A DNA stretch of 64,000 nt. Origin: Trichoplax sp. H2 (lineage: Eukaryota). Every line of letters starts with the position of its first letter. The stretch's first letter is position 1. The translations under genes and the position numbers were made by a program. The notes below the pieces were generated by a model. It was not told the origin of the DNA and did no database searches. It was given only the letters and a program-made list of their open reading frames with translations. Shown here piece by piece: positions 16,660 to 51,562 of the stretch. The stretch lies in contig NOWV01000171.1 of NCBI GenBank assembly GCA_003344405.1, positions 53,558 to 117,557 of the forward strand, written 5' to 3'.

Positions 16660-17350
16660 AAAACCACACGGGTTTAGTCTTTTCTCTAACATCAAGTCTA
16701 CTGGACAGTGCAGTACAGTACACAGTACAGTACAGTAAGTATTCTCGTTTTGGTATTCATCAGACAACCCACATGGGTTGTCTCTTTTCTCTAAAATCAA
16801 GTATACAGTGCAGTACAGTAAGTATTCTCGTTTTGGTATTCATTTGACAACCCATGTGACTCTAAATCAAGTATACAGTGCAATACAGTAAGTATTCTCG
16901 TTTTGGACAACCACATGAGTTTAGTCTCTTCTCTAAAATCAAGTATACAGTAAGACAGTAAGTACAGTATTCTCGTTTTGGTATTCAGTGGACAAAACAC
17001 CCGGGTTTACCCTTTTCTCTAAAATGAAGTACAGTATTACTGCAGTGCACAGTAAGTATTCAGGGTGTAGAAATTCGATCTAGATTAAAAAAAAACAGAT
17101 AAAATGATCAAAACTTTAAGCAGATATACAGTTTTATGGGTTTTATTCGAAAATAAATCATAAAAATATTCACTGACTTATCTAGAAAGAAATTCTACAC
17201 CTTGTAAGTATTCTGGTTTTGGGCAAAATACATACAGTATAGTACATGTACTGTACAGTGTACAGTACGTAGGTTTAGTCTTTTCTCTAAAATCAAGTAC
17301 TGTACACTGTACAGTACAGTATTCTGGTTTGGGTATTCAGTGAAGTACTG
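16660..17350. repeat. Satellite of about 85-bp units (6 copies). Each unit combines a near-palindromic box (AGACAACCCA-CA-TGGGTTGTCT), 'ctcttttctctaaaatcaagta', a (TGTAC)n microsatellite core and 'agtattctcgttttggtattca'. Copy 5 is interrupted by a MITE at 17061-17204.
   Basis: Direct alignment of successive units at about 16660, 16766, 16849, 16909, 16994 and 17213, with the last copy resuming after the insertion. Confidence 0.7.
17061..17204. mobile_element. 144-bp non-autonomous hAT-like MITE. Terminal inverted repeats are CAGGGTGTAGAAATTCGATCTAGAT ... ATCTAGAAAGAAATTCTACACCTTG. It is flanked by the 8-bp direct target-site duplication TAAGTATT (17053-17060 and 17205-17212) and is inserted into a satellite unit.
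   Basis: The TIR is about 22 bp with 3 mismatches and begins CAGGG, as in Ac-type hAT elements. An 8-bp TSD is the hAT hallmark. The interior is AT-rich with no ORF. The flanks reconstitute the uninterrupted satellite unit 'cagtaagtattctcgttttgg'. Confidence 0.6.
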
Positions 17351-17508
17351 TACAGTACAGTACAGTACGGAGAACTCTAGACATGTACTGTACAGTCCTG
17401 TACTGGACGGTTTACTGTACTACAAAGTGTACAGTACAGTACAGTACAGTAGGATCCTTTTCCAAACCGATAAATCGGCACCTACAGTACAGTACTGTAC
17501 ACTGTACA

Positions 17509-17797
17509 GTACTGTATTTTAGTTAAGCCGGCATTTTGTTCCCAAATCCGCTCCATTTTTATATTTAACTTCATATTAAAGAATTGGACACCAAAAAGAT
17601 CACGCTGTACTATATGTACAGCAAGTGCACATCTTGTCATCGGCTTGCGATAAATCAGTACTGTATTTTACTTAAGCCGGCATTTTGTTCCCAAATCCGC
17701 TCCATTTTTATATTTAACTTCATATTAAAGAATTGGACACCAAAAAGATCACGCTGTACTACATGTACAGCAAGTGCACATCTTGTCATCGGCTTGC
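17509..17797. repeat. Direct tandem duplication, two copies of about 150 bp that are roughly 97% identical (17509-17658 and 17659-17797), bounded on both sides by (TGTAC)n tracts.
   Basis: The string 'gtactgtatttta[gc]ttaagccggcattttgttcccaaatccgctccatttttatatttaacttcatattaaagaattggacaccaaaaagatcacgctgtacta[tc]atgtacagcaagtgcacatcttgtcatcggcttgc' occurs twice. Confidence 0.8.
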
Positions 17798-18188
17798 CTA
17801 CAGTACAGTACAGTACATGGCTTGTGATGCACTCAAGTTGGATGTGTTACTTTATATAACATAACAAACTAGTACTTTGCTGTGGGTCAATCAAATAGGC
17901 ACAGAAACTCACAATAAAGTATATAATATTACCTGTCAGATTAAAATAAAATTAATAGTACAGTATAATAAGATTAAATTGATGAGATGGGTCACGAGCG
18001 AAATATTTCAATCGATTGAAGAACTAGAATATCTTGCACTTCATTAGGTTAAGCACCTCAATATCGCGACGTATATTTAAGGGTAAATTCTAGCATTTAA
18101 TGAAATACAGTATGAAGATTATATACGTACACTACGGGAATGTAATCATGCTTCTTGTACTGTAATGATTAGTTCAATCACACTACCT

Positions 18189-18333
18189 ACGGCAATTAGT
18201 GTGGACAAACGAATAGTGTAGGTTCCTAATTAGTGTTAACCACGTTAAATATGGTATTACCCAAAATGTGCTAACGACCCACACTAAATATGATATTACC
18301 AAAAATGTGCTAACTACCCACACTAATTGCCGT
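18189..18333. repeat. Foldback element. A perfect 16-bp inverted repeat (ACGGCAATTAGTGTGG at 18189-18204 and CCACACTAATTGCCGT at 18318-18333) encloses two tandem 40-bp units ('cccacactaaatatgatattaccaaaaatgtgctaac').
   Basis: Read directly. The right arm coincides with the start of a third unit copy. Confidence 0.6.
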
Positions 18334-18784: not shown

Positions 18785-22726
<3,942 letters not shown>

Positions 22727-23959
22727 TTGAAAAATACTCTATACAATTGTACATGGTAACCATTTGTATTATGTAGCAGACTTATTTATTGCGTTTTTAC
22801 GGTTATCAGGCTTGCTGCTGTATATTAAAGTGGTATGTTACAGTTTTAGTAAGGTGACAAAAATAGACATCAACAGGTTGTAGTAGTATTTATGCAATAG
22901 AACGACTAACAAATTTAATTGGATGAATAAATGAGGTATCTGTTATTAGTTTCCATGCATGTGGCTTTGTAACAGTATATCATTCTTTATGAAACGATGG
23001 CAACTGTAAAGTATGAAGCAGCAGAATCCGTAGGTCACATTCACTTACAATGCAATTCTAACTTTTATTCAGAATTAGGAGTAGTGTCGCATAGCCAAAA
23101 AAAAGTAGTACTAGGAAGTAGATGTAATTGTTTACGTGTATTAGAGGTCTGGTATTTGGGTTAAGCGACGACAAAGAGTTACTGGCATACGTACAATGTG
23201 TGTTGTTAACAACGATATGACATATACAGTATAGTAGTGTATGCTTGAATTCAGCATCATCAAATAAAATTTAATTTAATATACTAGGAGTCAATATCGG
23301 TGGTATACCGTACACTATAGACTATCATCATTTGCATCATATCGATGTAAATTTACAATGAACAACGCTGCAGTAAATATTCATGTGAGAATATTAGCTT
23401 GATCGAGGTAGCCCTCCCTTCAGGCTATACGCGTACTGTTCAGAAGCTGAGCTCTCTTTACTAAATGTTGCAGCTAAAATATCTTACACTGGATTGTGCC
23501 GAGTGCTAATTACATCCTGCTTGCTGTCTAGCTAAAAGCTGGGGAAAAATGATATCTATCTGCTTTAATACCACATTCTTATTGATTGACAGGTTAACTT
23601 GTAAATCCCTCTAGGCTGTCATTCACTTAGTATACTGCACTGAGTAGTTTTATAAAATGGTTGGTTTGATAACTTAGCGATCTGCACTATACTGTACAGT
23701 TATTGCAGCATAGCAATTGCCAGTAAACAATGTGATCTCTTTGTTACACCAAGATTCTACGGCATACAGCTTTTTTATCGATACATCTGTAACAGCTCTG
23801 TTGTGTATTAAATAACGAACCTTCTGTCAGTGATGGACTTTCCACTTCATCCATGCTGGATTGTGATTTTGTGGGGGGGCTAGCATTTAGCATCTAGCAT
23901 TTAGCAATAGCATTTAGCTTGCTAGAGGAGGAGGAGCACACGAGGATTTACAATTTAGA

Positions 23960-24130
23960 GTACAAGTACTTTACAGTACAATGTACTGTGAAGGTATACA
24001 GTACCAACCCGTACTGTACTGTACCGTACTTTGTACTGTAAACGTTATTACAGGCCCACTATCAATCTATTGTACTGTACAGTCTACTGTACTGTACTGT
24101 ACAGTACAGTACTGTAATAGTACTGTAGTA
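23960..24130. repeat. (TGTAC)n palindromic pentanucleotide microsatellite tracts in the divergent PRMT3/TEP1 intergenic region. A (TAGCATT)n-like repeat lies at 23884-23925.
   Basis: Runs of 'gtactgtactgtaccgtactttgtactgta' and 'tgtactgtacagtctactgtactgtactgtacagtacagtactgta' are seen directly. Confidence 0.8.
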
Positions 24131-24335
24131 ATAATAACACTGGTGTGTGTCATTGAAATGACGTAATTTACTGAGAGTAAAGTGAAGTGAATTCATTACA
24201 CTGACGCTTGCCGTCTGAGTGGTACTGTACGACTCGTATCAAGCGGTCGGTATCCACGCAACCTATCTGCTGTATCGGCGATCAAAATAAGATGGACGTT
24301 CTTTTTCGCCTATGAAAATCTCAATATAACCAACC

Positions 24336-27300
24336 ATGTCTGAAAGTAAAGCGAATACTAGTGGAAGTTCATTGACTGCTAATAGGAATCTGTTGAGTAC
24401 AACTGGTGTTGGACTTGATAGCGGCAGTTCCACAGCATTATCGAGTAATCTATTGTCCACAAAGTCTACTCTATTGACCACCGTTGAAGGTACTGATTGA
24501 GATACGAGTTGATGGAACATGCAATACTTTCCATTTATCACATAGTATGTAGTTAGAAAGATACTAGACGATCTTATGAAATAGTTGCTTTCTATCCATG
24601 ATAAATAATAATTAAACAATGTATCCGTAATTCTTTATAACGAATATTTTAGAGATTACAACGTCTAATAGCATCGTCTAGTAACGCCTTTGCGCTAGAG
24701 CTTATAAATAAAACAAGGATACCTTTGAAGTCTTGGATCCAACATCATAATAGGATAATGCAATAGACTGATTGCTTGATTTTATTATATTTCCATACAG
24801 CCAGACAAAGTCGCCAAAATGCAGCTATGGCGAAATCACATCCAACACCGATGAGCAATCTGTATTCATTGGCTAATCCTAATCTTAAATTTACCAGTTT
24901 AGGTGGTACTCCACAAAGTATGCATGTATCCACGATCAGTTCAACCATGAAGGTAAATACTGAATTGAATAAATTAACTCATCCTACACCTGCAGTTGCC
25001 AACTTATCACAGCAAAATAACTGGACCATGGGACAGTCAACTGTAGCGAAGAAAACTAATTTATTAAGCTCAAATATGAACAAGCGTCACTGTAGCGGTC
25101 ACGCTTTAACCAACTATCAATTGCAACAAAGTACCAGTATTAAACCGAAAACGCTTAGGACTCTCTCCAGTATAGATAATACTAAGAGCCAAATTGGTGA
25201 TGTTACCATTGGGAAACAAGTTACCAATGATGATCAAATATTAAATGATCGATTAAGGTTATTATCTTCTCATACAGTTCATACCTACTTATTATTAAGG
25301 ATAGTGATAGATAATAAATGGTATAAATACCTTAAATTGCGCCGTCAACATTATATTATGATATCAAATTAATTTCTATAATATAAAAACAGCGATATTA
25401 AATATATATATATATATATATATATTTATATTCTCTATCTTAAGCTAATTAGTAATGTCAGTACTACAGTAATATGATCGATTAAATGGTATTGTTGTAT
25501 TAGTTCAATGATGTACGTATACTTTAACCTATATTTAGGAAATCCAAAATTAATCAGTAAAATTACGGTCAATGTGCATTGCTGCATATCGAAAATTTGG
25601 CCCAAAGTGATTATTTTATTTTTTACATTTTCATGCCTCCTTCGATAGCAACGTTGTCGACGAAGAAGAAATGATTCCAACTCCGGAATACGATCTTAAG
25701 GATTGGAAAAGCACCTCTGAAGATGATTTTGACGCAGAGGATCATATGGAAAAGCTCTATGCACCACCCAAGACTAGTTCAGATATTAGTAACTTGAAGG
25801 TTATATTCCCTTTTTATCGCTTAACCTTTGCTTACCGTTATAGAAATAAATCGCATGTCAGTCTACTACAGCACAGCGTATGTCAATAATAAATAAATAT
25901 ACCAACACTATACTATACTGTATATAGCCATTAATATCAATTTTTTTAAATTTTCTAGAAATGCTTAATCAACGCTGCTTCCTCGTCATTGATTGGCTCT
26001 CCTGATTTTAAAAGTAGAAAAGATTTCACCAGGCGGCAGCTGAAATTTTTAGCTAACAAAATCCAGATTTATGACCCAGAATTCATTCTTAAAGTACGTC
26101 TTACATATATTGTATCCCTACTCAAACTGCTCTCTACCTATCAACTCAACTATTAATACACGCCATCGAATATGTCCTATAATGACTGTTATACAACAGA
26201 TCTAAAATGCGTAATATATTATTACATAATTTTGCTTAAATGCTATATTGCAAAAATAATCTAAGGTCCTTTTTAAATTTCTTTGAAGGTTTCGTTGTAT
26301 ACACGCCAAGAGTTAGGAATACGTACTGCTGCTAATTTCTTATTGGCACTGGCAGCTAATATTCAAGCTTGTAGACCTTATCTGAAGAAATACTTTTCTA
26401 CAATAATTAGACTACCATCGGACTGGATTGAAGTTGCCGAATTATACCAGGTACAATAATCTCGTATAATTATGCGAAATATTATTTTCAGACTATTATA
26501 CTGTACGTGCAATATTATGTTTTCTGATTGTTATCCGTAATAAATTTCTATTCTATTTTTAATACTGGCCCTCTTAAAATTAGTCACTACATGATAAAAC
26601 TATAAGGATAGGATCTTTACCTAAGGCTCTACGGAAGGTCATGGTAGATAAATTCGGTGGCTTTGACGAATATCAGTTGGGTAATGCTATAGATAAGGAT
26701 GTAGTAATATACAAAAATTCTCAGATAATATAATTGTAATATAACAGTACGCTTGTGTATATATTTGATAGCTAAATATAATAGACAAAAGAGAAAAAAA
26801 TCAAGCCAGAATAAGAAAACGGATAAAACTTCACAGTTGGATCAAGCGGAATCAAATAATTACGCCTCAGAATTCAACGATATTATTTTCAGTGATGACT
26901 CCGAAGACGAAGAAGAAACAGTTCAAATGATGTTTACCTTAAAACAGTTAATTCGAAAATTGCATATAATCCAGCCAGCTGAACATGTTATGGCATTAAT
27001 TGGAAAAAAGTAATATATACAGTAGATTGCGAGCACATGTAACACTGTAGTAAAAGTAAATAATAGAATCAGTTTTACTGTTGTAAATTTTTTCTGTAAC
27101 TACATAATAATCTGTGATACCTGTCCACTAGATATCCTGTAGACTTAGAAAGTTTTCATAAGAGTGGCTTGTCTGGTATTTGGAATTCGGTAAGACACTT
27201 TCTTATTCTTGTTAATTATGTAACATATAATATGCATAAATTACTTATTCATGAATGTTACGTATACACGTAACAGGAACGAGCTAACAAGCGAATGAAA

Positions 27301-30300
27301 TTACCAGTTCCTGAAACTTGGGAGACGCAGTTATCATTGCATGGTAATAAAGCTTCAACATGGGAAACTCTAATTGGTAAGTCATTAAGATTAGCCACAG
27401 GACATATACGTTACCTTAGTTTACAGCATCTTTGTATAATATGACACTAATGGCATTCATGTTTAGTGCAATGCGTAATCACTTAGCAACGCCTATGTGA
27501 TCAATTTTGTGATTATTTTAGAGCACCAGAAGTTACCATTTATAGCCACTTTAAGGAATTTAAGAAATCTAATTAAGGCTGGGATCAGCGACAAGCATCA
27601 TAACCGGATTATTCGTAGACTTGAAAATGAAGTAAAGAGTATTTTATCCCCTTGTTTATATACAAATTATTCACGAAGTAACGGATTTCAATTAAAATAA
27701 TGTTGATTGATACCTGATTGGTTAACTGATTAATTTTTAGAATTCAGTTATCAACAGCAAATTATTCCCTTTTCGTTTCTTTACGGCTTTTGAAGCTATC
27801 AATGGATATGAAAAGACGTCGCAAGGTATAGTTATTTACGTCCTCAAAATTTATCTACGATACTGAAATATCTAACGGCTGTTATCAGAGATATAAGTGT
27901 CTATTGGGATAATGGTTCTTATTTATTCATATACATTTTTGTTGGCAAATATTTTGAAGCTGGAGAATCTGGTAATCGCTTTAACAGGAAGTTTAAAAAA
28001 TCAAATACGAAAAAAAAGAAACAGGTTGAGATGTAAGTAGATGTTGGTAATCTGTTTAACTAGCATTGCTGAATATGAATAAAAATTACTTTTTAACTTC
28101 ACCTTTAGGCAAAAAACGGTTTCTGAAGCGCTTCTCAAACGATACAGGGAAGCATTAGATAATGCTGTAAAGGTAGCTACAAATCACAACGTTGCTCCTA
28201 TTTGTGGCTCAACCCTCATTTTATGTAATGTTGCTGACGTGATGAAGATTCCTTGTACTGCAGCAAGAGGTCTTGGTAAACCTAGAACGGTAAATTTACC
28301 TTATCACGAATTCTTTAAGCTTCATCATAAGCGTTTACCAAATAGGTAATCTGCTTACCACTATGATTGCTGATGAGATATCTGTACTTTATTAGTTGCT
28401 AGAAGTTGGCATTTTGTTAGGCTTAATGTTCAGATACTCCTGCGAACAGTCTGAATTCATCATTTATGCTGATAACTGGAAAAAGATTGACGTATTCAAC
28501 ACTAATAGCATTCTTGAAAATACCGAGTCTATCTGCACGCTAGTTGAAGTTAGTGAATATCACACGTTCTTATTTTAATACCCCTAACAGTATAATTGTA
28601 TACAGCAATGATGTCGATATCTTTCTTTGATTTTACTACAAAGAAATCAATGATCACTACAAGTCCAAACGGATTCCCTGAACAAGAAATGCTGAAATAT
28701 CTTAAAGACCGAATTCAGGTGTTTAGCAAGCCATTCATAGTCTTTTTATAGATGAGCTATATTTATTTAATACGCTGTCGTTTATTTTCAAACGATACTA
28801 TTTGGCTATTGTAGCTTGACAACCTCATTCTCCTTTCGAATGGATCAAGCGAAGTGCCTAATCACAGCGTTATGAATAGTTTTCTAACCAAATATAGAAG
28901 AGTAGTAAATCCGAATCTACTTTACGTTAATGTGAATTTAAGCGGAAAAGTAACTGGGTGAGTTATATATATTTAAATGCAGTCAGTATTGCAATCTTAA
29001 TCATTAACATAATAATTCGATATATTCTTACTGTTTATAGATTTGATAGAAATAAGAAACTCAGCCATGAAAATGATGTTTACGTTACTGGGTTTAGCGA
29101 CCAAATCTTAAAGTTAGTACTTTATAGCCAATATTATTATACTAAAATTGAATTCCTTTGTTGATGTCAGTACTTCCTGTTAATAAGTATACTGCTTACC
29201 ATAATTATTATTCATACTACTAAATTTTTAAGTAAAGTCGAAACTTTTGATGCGTTTTCAGTCGTTCAGAAATTACTTTGCATCTACAATAAAATATTAT
29301 TTTTATTCATCATTATAAAAAGAAATAGCTTTATTATGCTGTATTTGTCTAAATTTATTATTTAGAAATATTTACTTCTGCTTTTTATACGTATACGTAT
29401 TTTATAATAGATTTGTGGCTGATAGAGGAGGGGATGGACAGTTAATCAACGTGGAGAATATTGATAATGCTTATAAACTGAAATCTATCAAGATACCTAA
29501 TGTAATAGGGTTTTTAATGAATAAAAGTAGATCTGAAAAGCTCTCTTGCTAATGTAATATCATTATCTTATAATTTGATCAGGCTATCTCAAGTGTTGAT
29601 AAAAGTGAGGACAAATCGTATGGTATCGGAACTTTTGATATGTTTTTACCAAGGTCTTTAAAATCTGTCTTTACGATAATTCTGCATTATCAGCTCCATA
29701 GATCATTCCCGAAACTACAACATTCTGATGTAAATTCCCTACATTTTTAGGTGGAAAACCGTTCGTGTTTTCATATCATCTACGTTCTTAGATATGCATG
29801 GTGAAAGAGATATTTTAACAAGGTATGTTTTTCCGGAGTTACGCGCAAGATGCCAGCGTCATTTTCTGAATATTTTTGAAGTGGACCTTCGTTGGGGTAT
29901 CAACGAAGCTGACATACAACATAATAGGTAAAATTTAAATACAAGCGTTATAATAAATATAGTAGTAGCAAATTAAAAGATAGTATACAAATACGGAATT
30001 AATTCATCAATTTTTGTTTACAGTATGCTCGAATTATGTTTAACTGAAGTCCAACGAAGTGATTATTTTATTGCTATACTTGGTCAACGATATGGTTGGT
30101 GCCCTCAAGGGTATGAAGTTCCACCAACTAGCGAATTTGATTGGGTAAGAAACTATCCGCCAAATAGGTCGGTGACCGAGCTAGAAATCCAACAAGCTAT
30201 ATTCAATAACCCATCCGAAGCAATTCGAAAATGCTTTTGTTATATCAGAGATAACACTTTTGAGAGGTAAGCAGATAATGAAATGTTTTATCTATTTATG

Positions 30301-36300: not shown

Positions 36301-39300
36301 TGTATCGGTTAGTTATTTCACTGTCAAATGAATTAAATTGTAATTAATAAGAGCTCATCTGCTGGATGATACAGTATTGTTTGTTCTACGCAAAATTAAT
36401 AGCATAAATCCAAATTTGTAATCATACAATGATTGTCAATTACTTTACAGGCTTGATTCAAATCTCAGTGGACACACTGCATGTATAGCGGCTGTTGATA
36501 TCTCATCAAATGAAAAATATTTACTATCCAGTGGTCATGATAAGGTGATTCTACCTGTATCGAAAGCGTTCATACTGAGTAAACAGTCTTTATATAAACA
36601 TCACCCTATTAATTAACTACACTACACATTCATTTGCTGATAGGTCATTCGTTTATGGAACATTAAAACGAAACGATGCGTAATTGAAAGTCACGAAAGC
36701 CATTTAGATTTAATAACAACATGTGCATTTGGTTCAGTTCATGATACTGTTGTAAGTAAATTATTTTTATAGCGATAACTTTTATATAAATTATGCATCT
36801 GTTAGATAAATCACAGCAATCGATGTCTTAGCGTAAAGCAAACACACAATAATCATCTAGGTAACCGCATCAAACGACCACACGGTTAAGTGCTGGGATG
36901 CTTCGGAACTATCCTTAGTCCTTCATCGTAAGAAAGTTTTGATTCCTGTCTCTGAAGTACATAGTCACAATAGCGCGGTTAATACTGTGTCAGTTGCGGT
37001 AAGTTGTGCAATTTAAAATTTAAAAATGTATAACAGTCCATTATGTTTAATTCACTTTATATGAGTATACAGATAATTAATTTGTATTAAATGCGACTTC
37101 TCGCCAGTTACATTTCCTTTATCCGAGCCAACATAATTTAATCATTCAATCTGCAGAAAAACTTGATTGCCTCTGCCTCTAGCGATGGAACTGTCGTTAT
37201 ATCCAACAGAATGGGTATTGAAATTACTTCCTTTAAGGCACACTCAGATCGAATTAATGCTTGCCATTTAGTGTTTCTGGATGGAGGTGAGTTTGAAACA
37301 ATTATGTTAGCATATTTCTATTGTGTTCCGATTTTCAAATTTGAATACTAAGAAGATGTGTACGCTGTAATCATTGGTGTTGTCTGTACCTTCAATTTTT
37401 GATTTAAATCATAGATTATTACTTAACAACTAGTGGTGACGATGGCTACGTTAAAACCTGGAGGCCAATACAAGTCTGTTTTTTCTTTCTACTTATGATT
37501 CATAGAGTAAACTAATATTTTCAGCATTCATTATAAATTATTTTTACTAGGGTGAAGAAATTTCTTCCTTAGTTGGTCATTCGGATCGTGTAGTCGCTGT
37601 CAAAGTTAGCCACAGTGGTAAAACAATATGCTCTGCTTCTATAGATAAAACAATCAAATTTTGGCGTACGGACGTGAGTTGGAAACTTGTAATATCTTTG
37701 TATAGAAATTATTAAGACTTTGGTTATTACTAAATTTAGCAAGAGATATAACGTCAATGCTTTATTGCAGTTTAATCATGTTAAGCAAGCGCATATATCG
37801 GCAGTTACAGGGGTGACTTTTTTATTTCATACGAATATCGCTGCGTCTGCATCTAGGTAAGTTAAAAGTATTGAGATGAGATAACAGCTGGAAAAAAGAT
37901 GAAATCCAACAATTTAATAATGCTTCAATAATAATCGCAATTGTATCATTTAAATTTATTAGAGATGGGATGGTCATTATTTGGAAACTGTTTTATAAAG
38001 ATGGGAAGCTGGCTCTAGAAAATAGATTACAATTTCAAGTATACATTGCGGAATTTTGCATATAAATGTGTAGCCAATTATTAAATATCCGATTACGTAA
38101 GGGATACTTTTCAGTACTAATGCATTATCCCCATAGGCTAGCGATGAGGCTGTAAACTGTCTTCGTCTCTATGGTGATACCGATAATCATGGTATACATT
38201 TAATCACCGGATCAAATGATTGTAAGGTGATAGTATGGAATATAGAGTTGGATGGCAGCCCGACTGTGATGAATTCCATTGAGTACGTTTTTCAACTCCA
38301 TGTGTAAAACTACAGGAATAATTTAAATGTATAAAGACTTTTAAGCATAATCTAAAACCTTGTATCATCAGGTTGTCAGCACCTGTTCTATGCCTCAACA
38401 TTCATAACAAATTACTCTATATTGGAACTTGGTCTGGCCATCTGTCTGTTTGGAATATAGGAACAATGATGGAAGTTAATAGCTACACAAGGTAAAATAA
38501 GAAGAAATATAAATGATGTATTGGTGCTTAATAAACCTTGTTAGATAACTAAATTTACATCGAAGACTACAAATACCTCTATAATGTAAAGGTGATTTCT
38601 ACTCTTTCACTATTCCTAAATACGATAGGTTGAACAATGAATGGATTTTAAATATCGATATATCAAACACATCACCCTATTGTACATGCGGTACCACAGC
38701 CTGTTTTGCTACGGTGTATTCTACATCCGAAACCAACAACAAAATTTTGCGTCATGTAGCAATTCCTGACGACAAAGCATCCGAACGTAACAAGCATCAT
38801 GCTTGTGTTTCGTACTTTTTAACCAGTCAGATATTAGCCATGAACTTAAATATAGAATCAATAGATGAAGTCTTAATTATAGGCGACAGTGATGGTAATA
38901 TTTTTGTATGTGATGCTAACAAAGAATACCTTCATCGCAAGGTACGATATTTTCATTTTTTCTGTATAGTAAATAATTTTACTAAAACCTAATTAAATTG
39001 GCAACTTGATACAATAGCACTCATAATAAGACTGGCCAAATTACAGGCGCTGATTAATTGATTTTCTTTGATAACCTTCACTTAGCTCCATACTGCAGCG
39101 ATATCAGAAATCATTCAAACAAAACAGTATTTAATTACGGCTTCCTGGGATTCTACTATCAAGATATGGGAATACGAAACTTTAAAACTTGTAGGCCATA
39201 TTGCACTATTACGATAGCTCGATTATAATTACCGAGCGTATAGTGATTGGATGTTGCATGTCCGGCAAAATAAATGATTGAATTCATTCCCTTTCTACGA

Positions 39301-39423
39301 TAGGTTGGTAAATTCTATTGCCAATCACCTGTGACATCTATGACTGCTATTATGTCTTGGGACAATTCTGGTATCCTTTGTGGTGATTACTTGGGAAATA
39401 TCTATTTGCTGCGATATATGTAG
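24336..39423 (+). CDS. TEP1: TEP1 (telomerase protein component 1, vault-associated) orthologue, a large multi-exon gene. Exon 1 is 24336-24489 (MSESKANTSGSS..., Ser/Thr-rich) and exon 2 starts at 24801. The TROVE domain lies at about 25960-27700 (EFILKVSLYTRQELGIRTAANFLLALAANIQACRPYLKKYFSTIIRLPSDWIEVAELYQ; FTLKQLIRKLHIIQPAEHVMALIG; KLPFIATLRNLRNLIKAGIS). A VWA-like region lies at about 28090-28330. The NACHT NTPase lies at about 29780-32520 (MHGERDILTRYVFPELRARC...DLRWGI; YFIAILGQRYGWCPQGYEVP; RYPCKWGGIVDKKPYLTNLEQFG; P-loop CGKKGCGKTALM near 30996-31026; IIFIDGLDQL; NVLFVVSVNE...FNKQMNVLISKREASSPLFLTLACEELRMFG). WD40 repeats span about 34100-39420 and end ...GDYLGNIYLLRYM*, with stop at 39421-39423.
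   Basis: Segment-by-segment colinearity with human TEP1 across the TROVE, NACHT and WD domains, for example human ...ALYTRQQLN...LPACRP...LPSDWIQVAE(F/L)YQ; FRDMHGERDLLLRSVLPAL...[96 protein letters not shown]. Exons are bounded by canonical GT/AG sites, and numerous six-frame ORFs fall in register on the plus strand. Confidence 0.85.
25402..25425. repeat. (AT)12 dinucleotide microsatellite inside TEP1 (probably intronic).
   Basis: Seen directly: atatatatatatatatatatatat. Confidence 0.9.
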
Positions 39424-40324: not shown

Positions 40325-43300
40325 TTAAACATTCCTTTTTAGCCAGTCTTCTGCAACTCTTTCATAACTATTGATCCACGAAATTCTGTTCTTAATACTT
40401 TCAACAGACTGCTTAACAGCGTTAGCACCTGTGCCTACATCAGGATTCTGTCTGAAGAAATCTTCAACCTAGAGAAAGGCATACACAACTTATTAATATA
40501 CAGTATAGTCATCCATGCAATCTTCAGGGTTGTTAAAATACTAGATTCACTCTTGCTTCAATCTTAAACTTGCCTGCTTCAATCTAAATTGTGATGCAAA
40601 CCGTCCAGCAGTATTTCTGATTAAGCTACCAAAGGAAAAGAAACTGCCGCCATACCTTTAACAAAATGTACAAATTTTAGTCATAATTATAAACATTCCC
40701 TTGATTCGAATACTAGTAAACATCATATAATGTATAAGATTTTACGTTTTCCTAATATATGCCCAATTAGCACGAACGAAGTCCCATGCGAGAGGCCTGC
40801 CAACCAAGTTATTGGCAATGTAACCAATAACAACAGTAGAATCTTGGGAACGAACTTTAGCAGGATCAATGGACCACCTTAAGTACCTACAAACAGTTCA
40901 ATAATTTTTTGAATGTTTAGTGTACGAGAATTAAGTTAATTAATCATTGCAATTGGTAAATCCATCATCAGAAGTCACAATGTACCTATTCAGAATCCAC
41001 GGTTCCTTTGAATATGACAAAGCATCTAATATAGTTCGTTTTTCGGAAGCGACATTCGTTTTATAGAAGTAATTATACAGGAAATCCCACTCTGCGATAC
41101 CTCCATTAGCTATACCAAAACGGTATACAACCGCCTTCAAGTTCGGTTTTACGCTAATGTTGAATAGACGATTGATCTCACTATCCCCGCTTTGCAAAAA
41201 GTCACCTTGACTATGCAAGTATTCTGTATTTCCAGGTAAAATTAAATATCAACATTAACTTACGCATTATTTGTGGGGTCCGCCATAAAGCGACGGAAAA
41301 GCAAAGTTGCATTATCTAAACATGGCTTGTATCCAAATCCACAACCAATAGTTAAGGCCGACATGCGCAATAATCTGATTAAATTTGATGGCTTATATCA
41401 ATTATTGAAATTATGGTAATTTTATAATTTTAAGGTAGTAATTAGTATGTTCAGTTTTTTAAAGCTTACTATTAATACATAATTATAGTAAAAGTTAAAA
41501 ATACTCACTTCTGAGTATGACTCCCTTTGTCTTCAAAGCCAATCGTGTCCAATAAAGGCTTTAATTGCTTCAAGTAATATTGCTAAATAATAGGGTATAT
41601 AAATAAAAGCTCATAATAAGCTTATCACATTCATAATGTGAGATTATTTTATTATAGTTGTATAATTAAATATATGTGTCTAAGTATACATATCTGTCAT
41701 TTACACTAACCGAAAAGTAACCGTAGGATGAACGATATGATATGATGGATCCAATAGCGCCAAGTACAGAGTTTGCAGTCCTCCAAGGAACATAGCTTCT
41801 TTCTTTCGTAAGATACTTTGTTGTACCAAAAGCGATGTCGTAACTGAGCTGGCCAACTCTACAAAACGAGAAATTAGCGTAACAAGTTTATACAGGACAA
41901 AACCTTGAGAAGTACTTGGAGACTTCAAGGGTTCATTATAATTATCGATCAGTCCCTTATTACCTTGCAAGATTAAAAGCGTCATCAAGTAGATTGGAGA
42001 AATCTCTTTTTGATAATGCCTGTCACGCATACGGAAAGCAACGATCAGTATTTCATGAATATTTCAATACGTTATAAGCACATATGTCAAACACTATAAA
42101 ATCAATCAACATTTTTTAAATGCACGCCATCATTATTGGAAAAACTTACCGGTTGTGTTTTCTGCATTTCCTGGATGAGGAGATTCCAATTACTTACTGG
42201 ATAGTTAACTCGGTAATAGCCATAAGCATCTTTGTTGGCCTTCAGCCAAGTACCAGCTGGCCAAGCTATATTGAGAGCTATTTAGGAATTTAAAATTACA
42301 TAATTACCAAACTTGTTGTAAAGTACAAAATACTCAAACACAACATTGGATTTTAGATCGCTACAGTACTTGCAAAATACTTTTAATCTATCTAACTATT
42401 TATAATCCACATATGCATGAACGTAGCTTACTGGAACTCATGTTAACCATTGCACTTCGAATTGTGTTCGGCGAATTTCCAAGAATGTATTTAAGCGGGA
42501 TATTCCACTTGTATCTATTAATTTAAAGCAATTAGCCAAGTCTAGCTTTCTGATAAGCTTACGCGGATCAAATTTTATTCATCTTTAATAAATGTAATTA
42601 GAGATACTACTAATAATAAATAAATATTATCATACCCATAGGGTGACCTGAATTTTGAGGTTGCTGGGTCAACCTCGGGATTTTTATTATTGGGATCCAA
42701 CAAGAAACGTTTTTGTGAGAGTCGAGCTTGAGAACCTGTATTCGTGATAGTAACGACAGGAAATCCCATTTGCAGTGTCCAAGTATCCATAACATCAGTA
42801 ACATTTATCCTGTAAGAAATGGCCTTAAATGTTGCCATAATAATTCGATCAATGATGTGCTACGGGCAATTAACTACAGAACTTTATGATAGTGCTTGTA
42901 AATCATTAATATACATATCCGATTAAATTTTACCTCCGATAAAGTTTGCCAAAGATCTCGAGTTACAGCATTCCGATATTCGAATTTTTTTAAGTATCTC
43001 TACATTTAAGAAAAGTAAACGTACGATAAAGAGATAATCTAAAAACTTTTAAGCCATCAATGTGCAATCAGTTTTAGAATATATGTCATACCGAAATGCC
43101 ATTCTTGAAATCCAAATTACCCATCATATCTCTCATCATTCTAATGATCGATGCACCCTACATTATAATTGAAAGATTACTTACTAACTTCTATTACAGT
43201 ACCAACGTTTCAAAAAAATTAAAATATCCACAATTCAAAAATAGGTTTCAAAGAGAACAGACCTTCGCGTAAGAAATTGTGTCGAAAACTTCATTAATTT

Positions 43301-46300
43301 CGTCGGGATGATAAACAGTAACTTGGACAGGATGTGAAGTTACAAATGCATCCAAAGAGAAGGCGCGCTGTACGTCGATAGGTACAAATTGATCGAGCTA
43401 TTCAAACAAAGAGCACAACAATTGTAAATTTTTAGCAATATAAAACTATAGGGAAATCACGTATTATCTATCCACTGTGGTGATCATCATTCTCTAATTA
43501 TTGGGGAAATTTAAAATTATGTATTACCATTTCCCATGTAGGTTGATAATGATCAGTGCCGAGATATTCCATGAAACTAGCAAAGCCTTCGTTAAGCCAA
43601 AGATCATCCCACCACTTCATAGTGACTAAATTACCAAACCACTACATGTTCAAATAGAAATTGAATAACTTAGTTCACAACAAGAGAGTAACGTAGGAGC
43701 TCATATCAATAATTTTTATTAACCATATGAGCCAATTCATGAGCCACTACATAAGCAACACGTTGCTGATTGTTAGCTGCAGAGACATTTGGATCATATA
43801 ATAAAGCAGTTTCGCGATAGAGAATTAAACCCCAATTTTCCATGGCCCCAGCAGCAAAGTCAGGAACTGCTACCATGTCTATTAGTTATTAAGGTGGCGA
43901 TAGGTATCAAGCGATTAGCAAAGCAAGAATAATGAAATGTATCAAACAACAAACTAATTACCGCATTATCAAGCATTACCTTGTTTCGGCAATGGGAAAG
44001 GAATACCGAAAAAATCTTCGAAGTAATCAGTTATATTAACACCACCAATTAAAGCGAAATTGCCCTGATTGATAGTATCGGTAGTTGCCCAAACCCTTAT
44101 CTAGATCCAATTTTAGTAAAATTTAGCTCCGCTGAGAAATTTTTAATTAATTTTAAATTGTATAAACAGGCAACATGAAACATAATGCTGTTTACTATTT
44201 ATGTTAACATACCGGTACTCTGTTTTTGGTCATCATTTCGATGTAAGTAAAATCGGCTAACACAAATGCAAGTAAGTACGAACTCATCCTAACACTGGCT
44301 GTAATAAATTGAAATATCGATCGTTAAGTACAGTTTCTATTTTAACAATAATAAAACAACGTATGCAAAGACTGAAATTTAATTACCAGGCTACATCAAT
44401 GGTCAATGTATCAAGGTGACAATACAACCTGCAAAGTCTTTCTTTGTACTGTACTACGCTAGATATGAAGTATCGTTCACTAAACTTACTGTTGTAGTCA
44501 TATCTTCTAAAACCAGGGCGATTAGGTATTGTAACATTTCTTTGAATTGGCATATTCCATAGAACGCTCGTATAATTTGATTGAGTAATGATTGTTGCTG
44601 TAAAATTGGCCTTCAATTCAGGCTCATCAAAGAGAGGTATAATCTTACGTGCGTCAGTTGGTTGACATTGGCTAGCTGCGATATTTCTAAATTGGAAAAA
44701 ATAACATTGCATAAAATTTTAGAAATGCAACAAATTTACTTCACAATTGTTAGGATTTACAGCAACACATTGACGTAACGATTGCTTCCCCCTCAATTTT
44801 TTTTTTTAATTCCGTCATTTCGATACTCGATTAACAAATTTAAAGTAACCTATCGTGCCGTTCGCATTGGCAACCCTACCCATCAAATACGACATAAGTA
44901 ATTTCTCCTACTTTAAAATAAACTCCATATCTAAAAATGAAGAGCCGCTTGTGCTACAATAATGATCACAACATTTGTTTTGGCACATGGCACTACGACT
45001 GGTGTTGACAACGCTAAACCGTAGTACAGTACAGTATAGTGAATTATTTACAGTACTTTGCGCGATTGTAATTTCGAAACTGGCCAATCAAATTCAGCTT
45101 CCAATTTACGTCACAGAGAGGCTGATTTGATAGATTGTTGTTCCGTCGAGGACACGTTTCATGTGGTCATGTAACCAGCATTCAGTGCGCACTTTTTAGA
45201 GCTCCAGTAGTAGGGTAAAAGGATTACAGCACGGTAGGAAAAGGATTACAGGCACTGTACGTACAGTACAATCATGGACTACTACAGTACAGTACTATAT
45301 GTACAAAAAACACTGTAGACTGTAGTCCATGGTACTGTACTGTGCCAGAGACTTCTCCGATAGGGCAATACGGTACAGTGGAAAACTCTCTTTAAAATGA
45401 GAGTCTGCTGAATCAGCCGCCAGAGTCAATTAGCCATTTAATTAATAATGACTTGGAACCATCACTGAACGGACGGCAAAATCAAAATAATACAGTACTG
45501 TAAAATCTCCAATCTATTTATCTACTGTACAGCAGCTAAAGGTGTGGCCCAAAGTAACGCACATTGGGGGACGCTAGAAATTTTTCCTTTTACCTTGATG
45601 GCTTGATGCCCGTTGATGGAAAGGAAGACTAAAACTTTTGATTTACCGCACCGTATTTGCACGGTATAGTAGTATATGGTTTACGTATCTAAACATAGCA
45701 GAGCCCAGTATTGCTCTGAGACATGATACGTCTGTGTCCAGTCTGTGACTGATTTAGTTGGACACTTACAGCACAGCATGTTGAACGTCATTGTCGAAAG
45801 CGAATATGCGTAAGTAAATAATTACCTTGTCGCATAAGCACACAACGTTGTTGTAATTAGGTGAACAGTTTCTGTACAATGCTTACGATGTGCAATTTAC
45901 TTTTACTTACATTACACGGCCATCCAATTTTGTGTAAGTACTTTTATACAAGCCGTTCAACGCAGTAGATAATGCTGCCCTAAAATTAAATCGGACGTAA
46001 TAGATTCCAGGATTAAGCGGGCTAGCCAGCACAATGTAGTAATAATCATTTAGCGCAAAAGCATTATGTTCGGATATCGTTAACGGGTTGCCAAAATTAC
46101 GTGTAGACGAAACCACTGGGGAACCTACTAATGTCATTTGCTTCATATGAACAATAATGATATTCGTTTGTGAAGTAACGGAGATTTCGATATCATTTTG
46201 GCCAGTAAACTGCAAGCCAATCATATCTACATCCAAAGAAAACCAGTACTGAATTGGAACAATATTTTTGGGAAGCCGAATGTTATTGACCGCCGGATAT

Positions 46301-46593: not shown

Positions 46594-47194
46594 CTTGTTT
46601 ATTTAATGTGTTATAGTAAATAGAACTTCCTACAACTGCAATCGTCACAAACTGTCGAAACACAGAAGCAGAAATAACTGCGAGGAGTACGAACTGTGAG
46701 TTGGCAGGAGAAAAAATAAAAAATAAAAAAAAAACAATCAAGACAGGCTAACTCAGTTCCGTTAACTGATCAGAAAAACGCTCTCCTGCCAATGATGATT
46801 AAGGGACAGGAGTAGCCAATAAAATAGCATGACCAGCCAACTATCGTGTTACCCAGCACGATACAGTTACCGTGCAGTATTGGTCCATCTGATACTAGCC
46901 AGTGGTTACTGACATGTGACATAGCACACTGTCTAGTGTACACTGCTGTGCGCGGTTGGCTACTATGGTATAGTCACACAGTACAGTATAATTGGTCGCC
47001 GTCCTTTGATTAAACGATTAATAATAAAAAAATTAATTAGCACTGCCCGTTTAACAAACATCAAATTATCATAATAATAGAGCTTTATTTGATCTGACTC
47101 ACTTAATAAAAGCTGATGGCAGAACCAGCCAGAACTATGGTATACTTTCTGCCAAGTTTCTATTAACGTTGATGTTGGGCGGAGCCTAATGGCG

Positions 47195-50100
47195 TACAGT
47201 ACAGTGCACTGTACGGCACTGTTAAAAGTACTGTACAGTACAGTATTTACAGTATTAGCGTTTCAAACATTTCGATGTACAGTACAGTACAGTACAGTAC
47301 AGTACTGTACACTGTACCGTACGTACTGTAGTTACCGTACTGTACATACTGTAGAGATCAAGATAAGGTAAATACACGACAGTAAAACGGTATCATGATG
47401 ACCGTACCACGAAATTGTTACTGACTATCAGTAAGTTTTTGCTCCCTATTTATGTACTGTACAAGGAAAGGAATTGACCACAAAATTTATAAATTAACTC
47501 ATCTTATTTTATTATTTTATGTAAGACCACTTGTAACCAGTATCATGGCTTTATTGTATGTTCACAGCTTAAATCCCTTCCAAGCTTTCTTTTCTTTCTA
47601 CTCAAGTAGTGTCACGTATCGCATGATTGACTGGTTTTGGCTAGTTATTATGCACGTGTTAATAAAACCGATAGGCAGAACAACCGAACAAAAGCGCTCG
47701 ATTTTTCTTTCAATTTTTTATTTATTTATCATCGTCTGCTATATTCGTGCTGTATTTAAATATCAGTTTTATAATGTACTTTATAACTACTGTATATTTA
47801 ATTACAATACAGCTGTTATATTAACTATCAATACAATAAATAGGAAATGTTATAGCAGTCAATAAAGTTTCATAGTTGCAGATAAAAAAAGAGCTGAATA
47901 TATTCACGGTGCTGTTGCATTTCCGCTTTACAATATATTCAAATTGACACAATGTGAGTTTTACATTATTGTAGGCCTATCTGAAATTAAAGTTTTCCAA
48001 GCAGCTCCTATTTTAACCACGATACAATTCGAAGAGGCACATTTGTCAAAACCGTCCATAATGCTCACCTGGAAAAGAGGATCCAGAATACCATAAACAG
48101 ACATTGATCTAGGCGAACTTTCGCTGAAACTCACATTGTAAAACAATACTAATAAATAGATATCTATAGAATAGATAAGTAAATCGATAGTTGGAATAAC
48201 GAAGAATAGGATGCCAAACGTTAGCATTTACTGCTGCATGCCCTCAAGGAGTTTTAGTAATTCTATTCATACTCTGTGCCATCATAGCGCTATAATTGAA
48301 AATCATTTTGCAAATATTGTATGCCAGTTCACCCCTTATTTACTGAGAAAATCGATAAACTGACGACACTGGGTCTAGTCCCTTATCCATCACCACAGGG
48401 CATTAGTTGTCTAATTTTCAATACTCGTGCATATAATTTGACTTATTAAAGATCTTCTCAAGCTTATCCCAATTTACAGTAATGTATGACAGTATTCAGA
48501 GTTATACAGTACAGAGTATCATATTCCCTAAACGGTTAATTAAACGGACTTTAACATAGCATAACTAATTCGTACACTATGCTGTACAGTGTACAGTATA
48601 TATTATCTACTGTATAGTACTATACTGTACTGTACTGTACATCAATCATCAGTCCTCTTTGGGAATAGCCTTTACGAGGAGTTTTCTCAGTGGGGTTCAA
48701 GAGTTAGCATTATTATTATTGCATTTGGTGTAACAGCTGTTGTTTTTACAGTCCATCACATCAACGTCATTAACCCTCTTCAGATCAAAACTACATGTTT
48801 TTACTGTATTGCATGATCATTAATTATGTGACAAGTTTGAACCACATCATCTACTTCTTTAGTCTGGCATCTGTAGATCCATAGGCTCAGCGAAGTGGTA
48901 GACAAGAGTTAGGAGATAGTTGTACAGCCTTTGTTGAAAGCGCGTAAGGCTTATGTAACTCCACAACAATCGTACAGTCAGGTATGCGATACGCGGTTAT
49001 AATACAGACGCGCGATACAGGTTTATACCAAATAATCCAATGGTAACAACATTAAGCCATGCATACATTACTGTACAGGGATGTGCAATTGTGCATAGTA
49101 TGATCTACAGCATCCATAAGATCTCTTTATCCGCAACGCTGCGTGATTGATTGTTTTCCAGATTCATGTCTGTGTCATGTACATTAGTACAGTACAGTGG
49201 AATGACCAGAAAAATGATAAGCCTCCATGCTTTTTTGCACTGAAAAGTGGTACTGCTGTACTCGTCTTGTACACTGCACAGAGATCGCGAAAGTGCCTCA
49301 CTTCTGAGTAACCGATATCGGACGAGTTAGCGCTCTAGGTTTTTTTCGTTTATCTGTATGGCTTACATCATCAAGTTACGGCAAAGGTGACGTCCACTGT
49401 ACTGTACTCTAACTGTACATATATATAGGTTAGATTTGTATGATATACAGAAACAACATACAAGCCTGAGCTGATATGCATTTTTCATGGTATTTTTCAG
49501 ATACATTCACTCACTTTTCTACTACATGGTATCAGTTCCGCTAATACTGCTGCAGTACTGACAAAAGTTAAATTAAAAGTAAATTAAAATAATAATAATC
49601 GCATATTTGAATAAAGAAGAATAATAAAGATATCAGTTTTGAGGCTAATACTTGATTCGAATCTCTGATAGTGATACTGTACTTTCGATCAATCAATGAT
49701 TTCTTATTGTTAATTGCGATACTGATAGAGTACAGTACTGTACAATCAGGGACTATTAAACGAACGAGATGGGGCAGGAAACGGTTGTTCGGTATGTTCG
49801 CTATACTAATAAATCAATAATGTGGAGGCTGATTATTCAATTGGTCATTTCAATTGTATCGCATATCTGTAAACGGTACACTATACTGTATGCGATTGGC
49901 GTCAAAAATTAGCTGCTATTATCCTACTACCTTGCTGTAAGTTGGTTTTATGCAGTATGGTATACAGTTTCAATGTTTCATCGGTAGCATATAGTACAAC
50001 GACCGAAAAAATGATAAGCCCTCCAAATTAGTTTACTTTACGCTATGGTCGTTTCCTGTTCCGTTTCTTTCTTTTTCTTTCTTTAGTCATTCGGACTACT

Positions 50101-50245
50101 ACAGTAGATATACTGTACAGTACTGTACTATGCAGTGTACTGTACAGTACTGTACAGCATACAGTGTACCGTACGATTGTCATCATTGAGTAACCACGGT
50201 ATATCGACTTCTATTGTACAGTGTACACTGTACAGTACATTATTT
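47195..50245. repeat. Divergent intergenic region between APN-A and APN-B containing at least six separate (TGTAC)n microsatellite blocks (47195-47350, 48490-48650, about 49190-49215, 49395-49415, 49725-49750, 50095-50245).
   Basis: Seen directly, for example 'gtacagtacagtacagtacagtactgtacactgtaccgtacgtactgtag' and 'gtacagtactgtactatgcagtgtactgtacagtactgtacagcatacagtgtaccgtacg'. Confidence 0.8.
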
Positions 50246-51562
50246 TGACGCTTAACCAATCAAAATCTATCTTTTGAGAAAACGCATCACGTGCAAAATC
50301 CAAACAAATTATATTATTTAATGTCATATTATTATATATTACCTATATATATTATATTGTCATATGTCACGATATATATGTCACCGTGACATATACTGTA
50401 TATTATACAGCGAGTATAACAGCACGATAATTAAGGGTTAAGAAGGCGTAATCATATAAATATTGTATACCTTTCGCTAAATACAGTACTGTACTGGCAC
50501 ATAGGATTGGCTACTAGGCCCAGTCATTCCTCTGTGATGTATCCAAAAATGCTGCTAAAATGGCGTTATATCTTCGTTATACTTGTCCGAGCAAATTTAC
50601 CATATTTTAACGATATTAACGAAGATCTAAAACGATGTTCGGCGCAGAATATCTCTAGCTAAATATGTCAGGTGCACGCCCGTGCACTCCGAAAATCTTG
50701 GTTAATGACTTTGTTAACACTTAAATTAACTAATCAATTATTCACAGAATCGCAGCCTAAAAAAATCTGGTTGAACTATCGACGATAAGTTCTTGTAACT
50801 CTACTACTGCTTCTATTGTTATATTGTCAAGCGGTGGTTAGTTTCTTATCATAAAATATTGCCCAACATTGTCAGTAAAAGAAAAAACAAATTAGTTTTA
50901 AATTAAATTTATATTGATAATAACAATGTACCCAGATAAATAGGCCTGACCAATGACAGTATTATCAAAACAATGGTTACTATTGTTGCTTCCGTCTATT
51001 CGAACTTTCCAATTCTAATTGCCTTCGGGCAAATATGGTTAAATGAATTCGACGGCAGAATACATTGATAGACTGACAATGATACAATGCTGGACTTTGC
51101 AATGAGTATATGGCGTCCGAAAATAAAGGATACAATCAATGCAAACTCAAATAAGCTTAACATTGAAAAGCTACTTCTTTGTTCATTTAATATACTGTAC
51201 TGTATATATAATGGCGTTCATCAACGACGACGGCTTTGCTCTTATTATATATTATTTATCCAGCAATAATTACAATACTTTTGATCGTCCCCTACTTCAA
51301 GAAGATTAGCCACCTGAATATTACTTCAATATCACAACATTTGCATCCTTCTTCCTTTCTATCTATTTGATAGGGTTAACGATTCAGGAAATTATGTTGT
51401 AACTGTTGCTATCCAGTCTAATAATAATATACGCTGGTAAAGTGGAAAGCAAATCCTATACAATATATTAGGACAATCTTGGACATTTTTTTCCATCCGT
51501 GGATGGGAAACTAATGATATTGATTCTTCCAGAAATAGTCATCGCAGAACGAAAGACTGAAG

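Follow-up and report, generated by a model that had tools for sequence, protein, structure and literature searches.

What is a short, self-complementary repeat doing beside so many of the gene starts in one stretch of placozoan DNA, and from what unit is it really built? The stretch, hereafter the window, comprises 64,000 nucleotides of contig NOWV01000171.1 of Trichoplax sp. H2, and the repeat is the pentanucleotide ACAGT, or its reverse complement ACTGT, which can also be read as a series of GTAC cores held apart by a single A or T linker. An earlier note, made from the letters alone, had reported that tracts of this repeat mark almost every intergenic interval, and had guessed at either a regulatory or insulator motif or a preferred substrate for integration or recombination. 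The tracts are real and far beyond chance, but they are an already described lineage-specific repeat. What we describe here is their anatomy: a unit that is a palindromic heptamer, TAC-N-GTA, an unusual mixing of unit orientations, and a turnover in steps of 5 bp and blocks of 20 bp. These properties are of moderate interest, and they turn a descriptive puzzle into a set of testable alternatives.

The abundance of the tracts is easily established. The pattern TGTACWGTAC (W being A or T) occurs 63 times in the window, against 0.48 expected from dinucleotide-preserving shuffles, none of which yielded more than 3, and two GTAC cores stand exactly 5 bp apart on 66 occasions. Perfect runs of ACAGT/ACTGT units at least 12 nt long, which we call arrays, number 34, the longest being the 36 nt at 47276-47311. 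Tracts were found at every place where the earlier note had put them (6988-7008, 16.7-17.8 kb, 23954-24127, 45023-45343 and 47194-50239); the 23-mer that it quoted has no verbatim occurrence.

The linker between cores spaced at 5 bp is A in 34 cases, T in 29, C in 3 and G in none, and the A-type and T-type units are each other's reverse complements. The note had pictured GTAC cores joined by an alternating A/T linker, with both strands reading alike. The cores do recur every 5 bp, the linker is A or T apart from the 3 C in 66, and the two strands do read alike, but the order of the linkers is nearly random: neighbouring linkers are the same in 15 cases and switched in 9 within the window, and the same in 10 and switched in 7 in three independent loci of Trichoplax adhaerens. 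As a control we used metagenome contigs from JGI that carry at least five cores with any A/T linker, amounting to at least 120 contigs (L010-L129) from other organisms. Among the matches listed for these contigs, neighbouring linkers were the same 1,361 times and switched 65 times, with transitions as common as A/T flips. Linkers are thus switched in 16 of 41 neighbouring pairs in Trichoplax (39%) and in 65 of 1,426 (4.6%) of the listed pairs from other organisms (Fisher p = 6e-11), which argues that mixed orientation belongs to the Trichoplax tracts and not to the ACAGT motif as such. The (ACAGT)n arrays of other eukaryotes, in at least 120 JGI contigs, share the 5-bp unit and the head-to-tail arrangement with those of Trichoplax, but are long and homogeneous, whereas the Trichoplax arrays are short (at most 7 cores) and mixed, with C or G rarely found in the linker. 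Arrays of at least five (ACAGT) units are, in themselves, common in environmental contigs (at least 120) and nearly always homogeneous; mixed or higher-order patterns appear in a few of the control contigs, for example L099, L089 and L091.

A repeat with a period of five can be cut into units at five different phases, and the isolated copies of each possible word reveal which of the phases is preferred. Once all runs of at least 9 nt that fit the periodic pattern had been masked, TACWGTA remained 60 times in the window against 14.3 expected (4.2x), with a 7.9x enrichment in the zones at gene 5' ends, while the other four phases reached only 1.3-2.2x. The same test on 83 kb of the independent loci gave 69 copies against 18.9 expected (3.65x), with the other phases at 1.3-2.05x. 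When all 128 families of palindromic heptamers were ranked over 165 kb of Trichoplax sequence against a first-order Markov expectation, TACWGTA came first (145 against 36, 4.0x) and TACSGTA, with C or G at the centre, came second (57 against 15, 3.8x); the families next in rank with real counts stood at about 2x. The spacer is equally specific, since TAC and GTA separated by one nucleotide are enriched 3.6x and the same half-sites separated by 0, 2, 3 or 4 nt only 1.2-1.7x. Because only the phase bounded by TA is enriched, and only with a spacer of 1 nt, the repeat is best described as a series of TAC-N-GTA palindromes that overlap by a shared TA. The central base of the isolated heptamers matches the composition of the genome. 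No extended motif was found in the flanks of the isolated heptamers, these sites are not copies of an element, and no helical phasing between heptamers was seen beyond the 5-bp and 7-bp units. The C/G-centred words TACCGTA and TACGGTA are enriched (3.8x over the 165 kb) despite containing CpG, and they are scattered over gene bodies and 5' regions alike. Among the copies of these two words are some that resemble 5' splice sites (ACG|GTAAG). The anatomical details given here rest on about 165 kb of sequence.

The next question is where the tracts lie. Five zones, each a 5' interval or a first intron and together making up 21% of the window, hold 33 of the 34 arrays: 5.5-7.65 kb, between an ankyrin-like gene and RFK, which are apparently head to head; 13.6-18.8 kb, upstream of an epimerase gene; 23.87-24.83 kb, between the head-to-head genes PRMT3 and TEP1; the first intron of APN-A; and 46.6-51.56 kb, between APN-A and APN-B, again head to head. 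The sole array within a gene body away from the 5' end is at 34513-34525, in an intron of TEP1. The density of TACWGTA is 7-16 per kb in four of the zones and in the array-rich part of the zone upstream of the epimerase (3.8 in the other half of that zone). Most gene bodies have 0.5-0.9 per kb, the pair of convergent 3'-3' intervals 0.9-1.7 and the stretch between APN-B and APN-C 0.47. A replication set of three further T. adhaerens loci (85 kb) gave a mean of 4.7 per kb for intervals that contain a 5' end, against 1.1 for gene bodies and 2.5 for convergent intervals. The non-random placement towards 5' ends that the note had proposed therefore appears both in the window and, again, in three independent loci. 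Its broader statement that almost every intergenic interval is marked goes too far: four of the seven intervals carry arrays, each of them containing the 5' end of a gene, but the other three, RFK/epimerase and TEP1/APN-A (both 3'-3') and APN-B to APN-C (tandem), are at background level. The absence from exons that it had noticed holds, since arrays avoid coding exons; one isolated heptamer, at 46536, lies in exon 1 of APN-A. APN-C, a plus-strand gene that starts just beyond the end of the window, has small arrays just downstream of its exon 1, apparently in its first intron. Neither the orientation of an array nor that of its units bears any relation to the direction of the flanking genes. 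Comparison outside the genus added little: the nearest non-Trichoplax relatives of APN-B exon 1 (loci L001-L005) have no arrays and no clear heptamer excess, their upstream DNA being too short to inform. A metagenome contig with a TEP1-like gene (L009) was set aside as a comparison, as it is intron-poor and not placozoan.

The tracts also change quickly. We compared the window with scaffold DS985241.1 of the 2008 T. adhaerens assembly (GCA_000150275.1), a pairwise comparison in which gains and losses look alike. The two are about 99.3% identical, with 331 substitutions over 53,334 aligned bases (about 53 kb), and identity is 99.1-99.5% in most aligned blocks and 97.2-97.8% in two tract-rich ones. 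Tract territory is 3.4% of the aligned sequence and holds 10 of the 48 indels (p = 4.5e-6), so that the instability in repeat length that the earlier note had thought worth looking for is present between these two assemblies. Six of the differences are 5 bp long (17233, 17309, 17345, 17412, 17444 and 45049), four of them lying within or just upstream of the array cluster at 17344-17516. Two are 20-bp blocks, at 24089 and 45346, that are palindromic or mirror the neighbouring sequence, the block at 24089 being 20 bp with no counterpart in the 2008 assembly. Further indels comprise 31 bp, 4 bp and a 166-bp duplication; in the last, the stretch 17490-17655, made up of 17 bp of tract and a 149-bp unit, occurs twice in the window and once in the 2008 assembly, with its junctions in ACAGT arrays. 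The first intron of APN-A (45023-45502) alone shows indels of 5, 20 and 31 bp. At 17444 the extra unit is of the T type within a run of the A type, and therefore does not copy the unit beside it. Arrays contain four real substitutions, of which two are A/T flips at the linker, whereas A/T changes make up 12.7% of substitutions as a whole. Both N gaps that the 2008 assembly has in this region, at 45419-45716 and 47459-48807, are filled in the window, by 297 bp and 1,348 bp respectively; one of them has small ACAGT arrays at its edge, and the other contains them.

Mixed orientation makes the tracts quasi-palindromic, and when folded as single-stranded DNA all eight of the tracts that were tried did better than their shuffles (z from -2.2 to -4.9). 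A perfect 24-bp palindrome occupies 24089-24112, and at 24085-24116 a perfect stem of 11 bp is part of a longer hairpin that is imperfect; 17483-17516 forms a 13-bp stem with a 3-nt loop, and 50111-50157 a 16-bp stem. The inverted repeat at 45255-45345, about 90 bp long, has tract units in its arms together with unique sequence (CATGGACTAC / GTAGTCCATG), which suggests that DNA next to the tract was copied by folding back. As for the hairpins and cruciforms that the note had envisaged, the self-complementarity and the folding are there, but with arms of just 11-16 bp the extrusion of a cruciform is possible only on paper.

Much of this was foreshadowed in the literature. Wang et al. 2010 (Biol Direct 5:18, PMC2871265) reported that pentanucleotides make up 61.8% of Trichoplax microsatellites and that ACAGT, the dominant microsatellite, accounts for 78% of pentanucleotide repeats, with 5,624 loci; 54% of the loci are no more than 1 kb upstream of a gene, a share that rises to 85% at 5 kb, and the repeat was proposed to be a transcription factor binding site. 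With coordinate offsets applied, nine of the arrays in the window match entries on scaffold_1 in Additional file 5 of that paper (8834702, 8844348, 8844929, 8844970, 8845064, 8845273, 8872667, 8872759 and 8874467). With nine of its loci catalogued, and the same motif and the same bias in print, the basic observation was already known. The organism, the motif and the upstream bias are alike, but Wang et al. describe a plain pentanucleotide repeat. Their account does not mention, as found here, that ACAGT and ACTGT orientations are mixed, that the unit is a heptamer bounded by TA, that isolated TAC-N-GTA is enriched or that the arrays are hypermutable. More recently, a neural network named Chimaera (NAR 2026, PMC12817080), whose training set was Micro-C maps of T. 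adhaerens, recovered the "repeating motifs ACGG and ACAGT" among the determinants of its predicted contact maps, and ascribed ACGG to a transposable element tied to insulation. Motif and species are again the same as here, the insertion of ACAGT in silico alters the predicted maps, and a related pattern of 4 nt is tied to insulation; the association is, however, derived from a model and comes without anatomy, protein or mechanism. That element corresponds to the "ACGG" motif from the terminal inverted repeat (TIR) of a Mutator element which Kim et al. 2025 (Nature, PMC12221973) reported at loop anchors of placozoan housekeeping promoters. This, too, is a placozoan-specific, short, repeated promoter motif tied to contacts in three dimensions, and at the level of words ACGGT/ACCGT is a single transition away from ACAGT/ACTGT; TACSGTA is co-enriched with TACWGTA. 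The motif of Kim et al. is derived from a transposable element, whereas the ACAGT arrays share no flanks. Along the window, ACGG words and tracts are weakly correlated (Spearman 0.28), and the TACSGTA sites likewise share no flanks. The observation of the earlier note and its regulatory or insulator guess are thus both already in print, although the mechanism is not; the guess agrees with the proposals of Wang et al. and of Chimaera, but neither of these demonstrated a function. The heptamer unit, the near-random linker and the 5-bp and 20-bp differences between assemblies are absent from the literature that could be searched, which also held no paper explaining the mixed orientation of the units.

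How might all of this fit together? The reading we favour, as plausible rather than probable, is that the TAC-N-GTA arrays are orientation-free docking sites for a putative dimeric DNA-binding protein at promoter boundaries. Such a sequence-specific protein would recognise the heptamer in either orientation, and the arrays would be microsatellite-amplified versions of its site, serving as multi-copy platforms that may keep the DNA flanking a promoter open or mark the boundary between transcription units, thereby insulating one from the other. As the differences between assemblies show, copy number drifts quickly, through replication slippage in 5-bp steps and through hairpins by which palindromic blocks some 20 bp long are gained or lost. 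A central base that simply follows genome composition, as it does in the isolated heptamers, would fit a position that the dimer does not contact. A short motif that is over-represented, clustered and orientation-free near gene starts, as might be expected of a cluster of binding sites or of an insulator, is what was found. In Drosophila, the (GA)n sites of GAGA, the CGATA clusters of BEAF-32 and the DRE, TATCGATA, are short and partly microsatellite-like or palindromic motifs that cluster in both orientations beside transcription start sites, often between head-to-head genes, where dedicated bound factors open the chromatin or insulate. These differ from the Trichoplax motif in sequence and in lineage, and the likeness may be no closer than an analogy of mechanism. 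It is the combination of a spacer-specific palindrome, a centre driven by composition, orientation-free clustering at 5' ends and this fly pattern that leads us to prefer docking sites over the other explanations.

Several observations pull the other way. No protein is known to bind the heptamer, and no transcription factor matrix could be matched to it. In the replication set the density of 5' intervals varies widely, between 0.3 and 27 per kb, and roughly one in two has no arrays, which means that arrays are not a general promoter requirement. The fast gain and loss of units between near-identical genomes suggests weak constraint on their number. C or G at the centre is found in 3 of 66 array linkers but is freely accepted in isolated heptamers, and a simple model in which the central base is free is therefore inadequate. 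Splice-site words such as TACAG| and G|GTA may explain part of the intragenic background of heptamers, and the Chimaera association, being drawn from a trained model, may only reflect the motif as a proxy for promoters.

Perhaps, then, the tracts do nothing at all, and are a neutral by-product of slippage that arises and persists mainly in the 5' flanking DNA of a very compact genome, where nucleosomes are absent or constraint is weak. Whole units do come and go between near-identical genomes (the six 5-bp differences), many 5' intervals have no arrays, the arrays are short at no more than 7 cores, and ordinary microsatellites of the same motif exist in other organisms. Yet introns and 3' intergenic DNA are also non-coding and are 5-20 times poorer in the motif, and slippage alone should produce homogeneous arrays, as it seems to elsewhere, where switches amount to 4.6% among the matches listed, against 39% in Trichoplax. 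A plain microsatellite would run in one orientation with ordinary substitution variants; here, 16 of 41 linkers are switched and C or G occupies only 3 of 66. The top rank of isolated TAC-N-GTA, whatever its centre, is also left unexplained, and we regard slippage without function as doubtful. Alternatively, the DNA itself might act, if hairpins or cruciforms extruded or the tracts melted easily in response to the negative supercoils that accumulate between divergent promoters, so that they served as torsional sinks or boundaries with no dedicated protein. That all 8 of the folded tracts beat their shuffles would suit this idea, as would the head-to-head layout of three of the five tract zones, the palindromic nature of the polymorphic 20-bp blocks, which is typical of hairpin-mediated events, and the A/T linker flips that make up 2 of the 4 real array substitutions. 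The perfect arms of 11-16 bp, often mismatched, are marginal for extrusion in vivo, however, and isolated heptamers, which are unable to form such structures, are enriched 7.9x in the same zones; a purely structural role seems improbable.

An explanation of a very different kind starts from the unit itself. TACAGTA and TACTGTA are the canonical footprints of Sleeping Beauty (PMC6943129), and if every insertion and excision of a Tc1/Sleeping-Beauty-type element at a TA left 5 bp behind, as TA-CAG-TA or TA-CTG-TA with A or T at random, then stacked scars would grow into arrays just like these, and the arrays would be a fossil or ongoing record of a Tc1/Sleeping-Beauty-like or domesticated transposase at TA sites on the promoter side of genes. 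The 7-bp unit is identical to such scars down to its A/T centre, the A and T linkers occur at about 1:1 and near-randomly between units with almost no C or G in the arrays, the enrichment of isolated words is confined to the TA-bounded phase, and the 5-bp differences at 17233 and 17412 look like the conversion of TA into TACAGTA at the edge of an array. Against this, only 20 of the 68 array ends in the window are in the TA phase, the W phase and the A...T phase being about as common, with similar figures in the independent loci, and these phases lend no support to a strict footprint model. TACSGTA (3.8x) is as enriched as TACWGTA (4.0x), about four times more than transitions in W-centred units could supply by our own estimate, and a search of the window for elements with CAGT ends (TACAGT...ACTGTA) returned only pairs of arrays. 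We know of no promoter targeting by Sleeping-Beauty-like elements. Transposable elements constitute 0.13% of the Trichoplax genome, with no active element and 11 degraded mariner/Tc1 fragments that lack TIRs (PMC2871265). We give the footprint explanation very little credence. The tracts are not themselves copies of a transposable element or of a miniature inverted-repeat transposable element (MITE), as they have no common flanks and the repeat families found consist of the tract alone, except for a local 70-bp minisatellite; for the suggested preferred integration substrate no evidence was found, the copies sharing no flanks and the window containing no elements with matching ends. Finally, ACAGT resembles a CA+1 or TCAGT initiator, and mixed arrays could offer start sites on both strands of a bidirectional promoter. 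Tracts are indeed found 0.1-1.4 kb ahead of start codons, frequently with divergent genes on either side, and ACAGT is the commonest pentanucleotide repeat in expressed sequence tags (ESTs), with 14 cases (PMC2871265). Those 14 stand against 5,624 genomic loci, however; unit orientation is unrelated to the direction of the flanking genes, and some arrays are 3-4 kb away from any start codon while others are in first introns, so we consider initiator arrays the remotest of these explanations.

What is at stake is the role, at promoters, of the most abundant simple repeat in the very compact genome of an early-branching animal. The heptamer, the orientation-free arrays and the fast turnover make that question more testable, in that the palindromic heptamer supplies a defined bait, (TACAGTACTGTA)n, for a pull-down or for DNA affinity purification sequencing (DAP-seq). 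The anatomy also sets three models in contrast: selection for binding sites, mutation driven by hairpins, and transposon footprints. Should there be a dedicated factor, a promoter and boundary system working like fly GAGA or BEAF-32 would have evolved independently in placozoans. If the footprint explanation were true instead, the dominant "microsatellite" of an almost transposon-free genome would be a stack of transposon scars, one TAC(A/T)G added with each cycle.

The individual tracts can be followed along the window from left to right. The interval left of RFK has a 16-nt ACAGT/ACTGT array at 5775-5790 and a (GTACT)4 array at 6988-7008, about 650 bp upstream of RFK exon 1 (scaffold_1:8834702-8834721 in Wang et al. 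2010). A short array at 14828-14841 is about 1.2 kb upstream of the epimerase, a minus-strand gene. From 16661 to 17330 there runs a minisatellite of 5-6 units of 70-85 bp, each unit with its own small ACAGT tract that varies in unit number or length and in orientation. As the tracts within these units differ, tracts also multiply when larger units are duplicated in tandem, and diverge afterwards. A cluster of five arrays follows at 17344-17368, 17384-17396, 17428-17451, 17483-17501 and 17501-17516, and is in the catalogue of Wang et al. 2010; beyond it, a duplicated 149-bp unit flanked by ACAGT arrays occupies 17507-17817, its terminal array being 17799-17817. The promoter between PRMT3 (minus strand) and TEP1 (plus strand) has arrays at 24011-24116, and the first intron of APN-A has four, at 45023-45036, 45283-45296, 45332-45343 and 45491-45502. 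Some 0.6-0.75 kb upstream of APN-A, the cluster at 47194-47345 holds the longest array (47276-47311) and corresponds to scaffold_1:8874467-8874495 of Wang et al. 2010. The array at 48583-48641 is inverted relative to that longest array, and between the two lies an AT-rich non-coding segment of 1.35 kb (47276-48640), an N gap in the 2008 assembly, at whose ends 22 of 24 positions are complementary. A search of this segment for open reading frames and Pfam domains gave no signal; it could be a non-autonomous element or a coincidence. The remaining arrays of the APN-A/APN-B interval are three short ones at 49186-49198, 49396-49408 and 49729-49744, a cluster at 50111-50129, 50136-50157 and 50227-50239, which is 1.3-1.45 kb upstream of APN-B, and two more short ones at 50482-50496 and 51193-51204, respectively 1.07 kb and 0.36 kb upstream of the ATG of APN-B (51563).

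Judged by its sequence, the host is Trichoplax (T. adhaerens or a very close lineage), and one exon of PRMT3 shares 97% identity with Trichoplax sp. H2 and 93% with T. adhaerens. Gene order was taken from the gene calls of the 2008 assembly and our own mapping of exons. The ankyrin-like gene extends to about 4.1 kb on the minus strand; RFK runs on the plus strand from exon 1 at about 7.65 kb to its end at about 9.83 kb; the epimerase occupies 10.98-13.59 kb on the minus strand, with its ATG at about 13589; PRMT3 lies at 18.79-23.87 kb on the minus strand; TEP1 at 24.83-39.42 kb (24767-39421 in a second entry) on the plus strand; APN-A at 40.32-46.59 kb on the minus strand; and APN-B from 51.56 kb to about 59.7 kb on the plus strand. 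The TEP1 product combines TROVE, DUF4062, NACHT and WD40 domains and is telomerase protein component 1, not a thioester-containing protein; the gene shares with PRMT3 a head-to-head promoter of 960 bp. An Rfam scan of the entire window returned zero matches. Some smaller repeats were seen as well. Inside or adjoining the ankyrin-like gene at the left there are a 35-bp tandem repeat (2 copies, 94%) and a 69-bp direct repeat (88%), at 3365-3433 and 3563-3724. A MITE-like inverted repeat at 14154-14310, whose arms (14164-14210 and 14257-14303) are 77% complementary, has no relation to the ACAGT tracts, and a single arm related to it is found 36 kb away at 50512-50575. Two short patches, at 17865-17945 and 41840-41911, resist base-for-base alignment to the 2008 assembly although their flanks are about 99% identical, and are small replacements.

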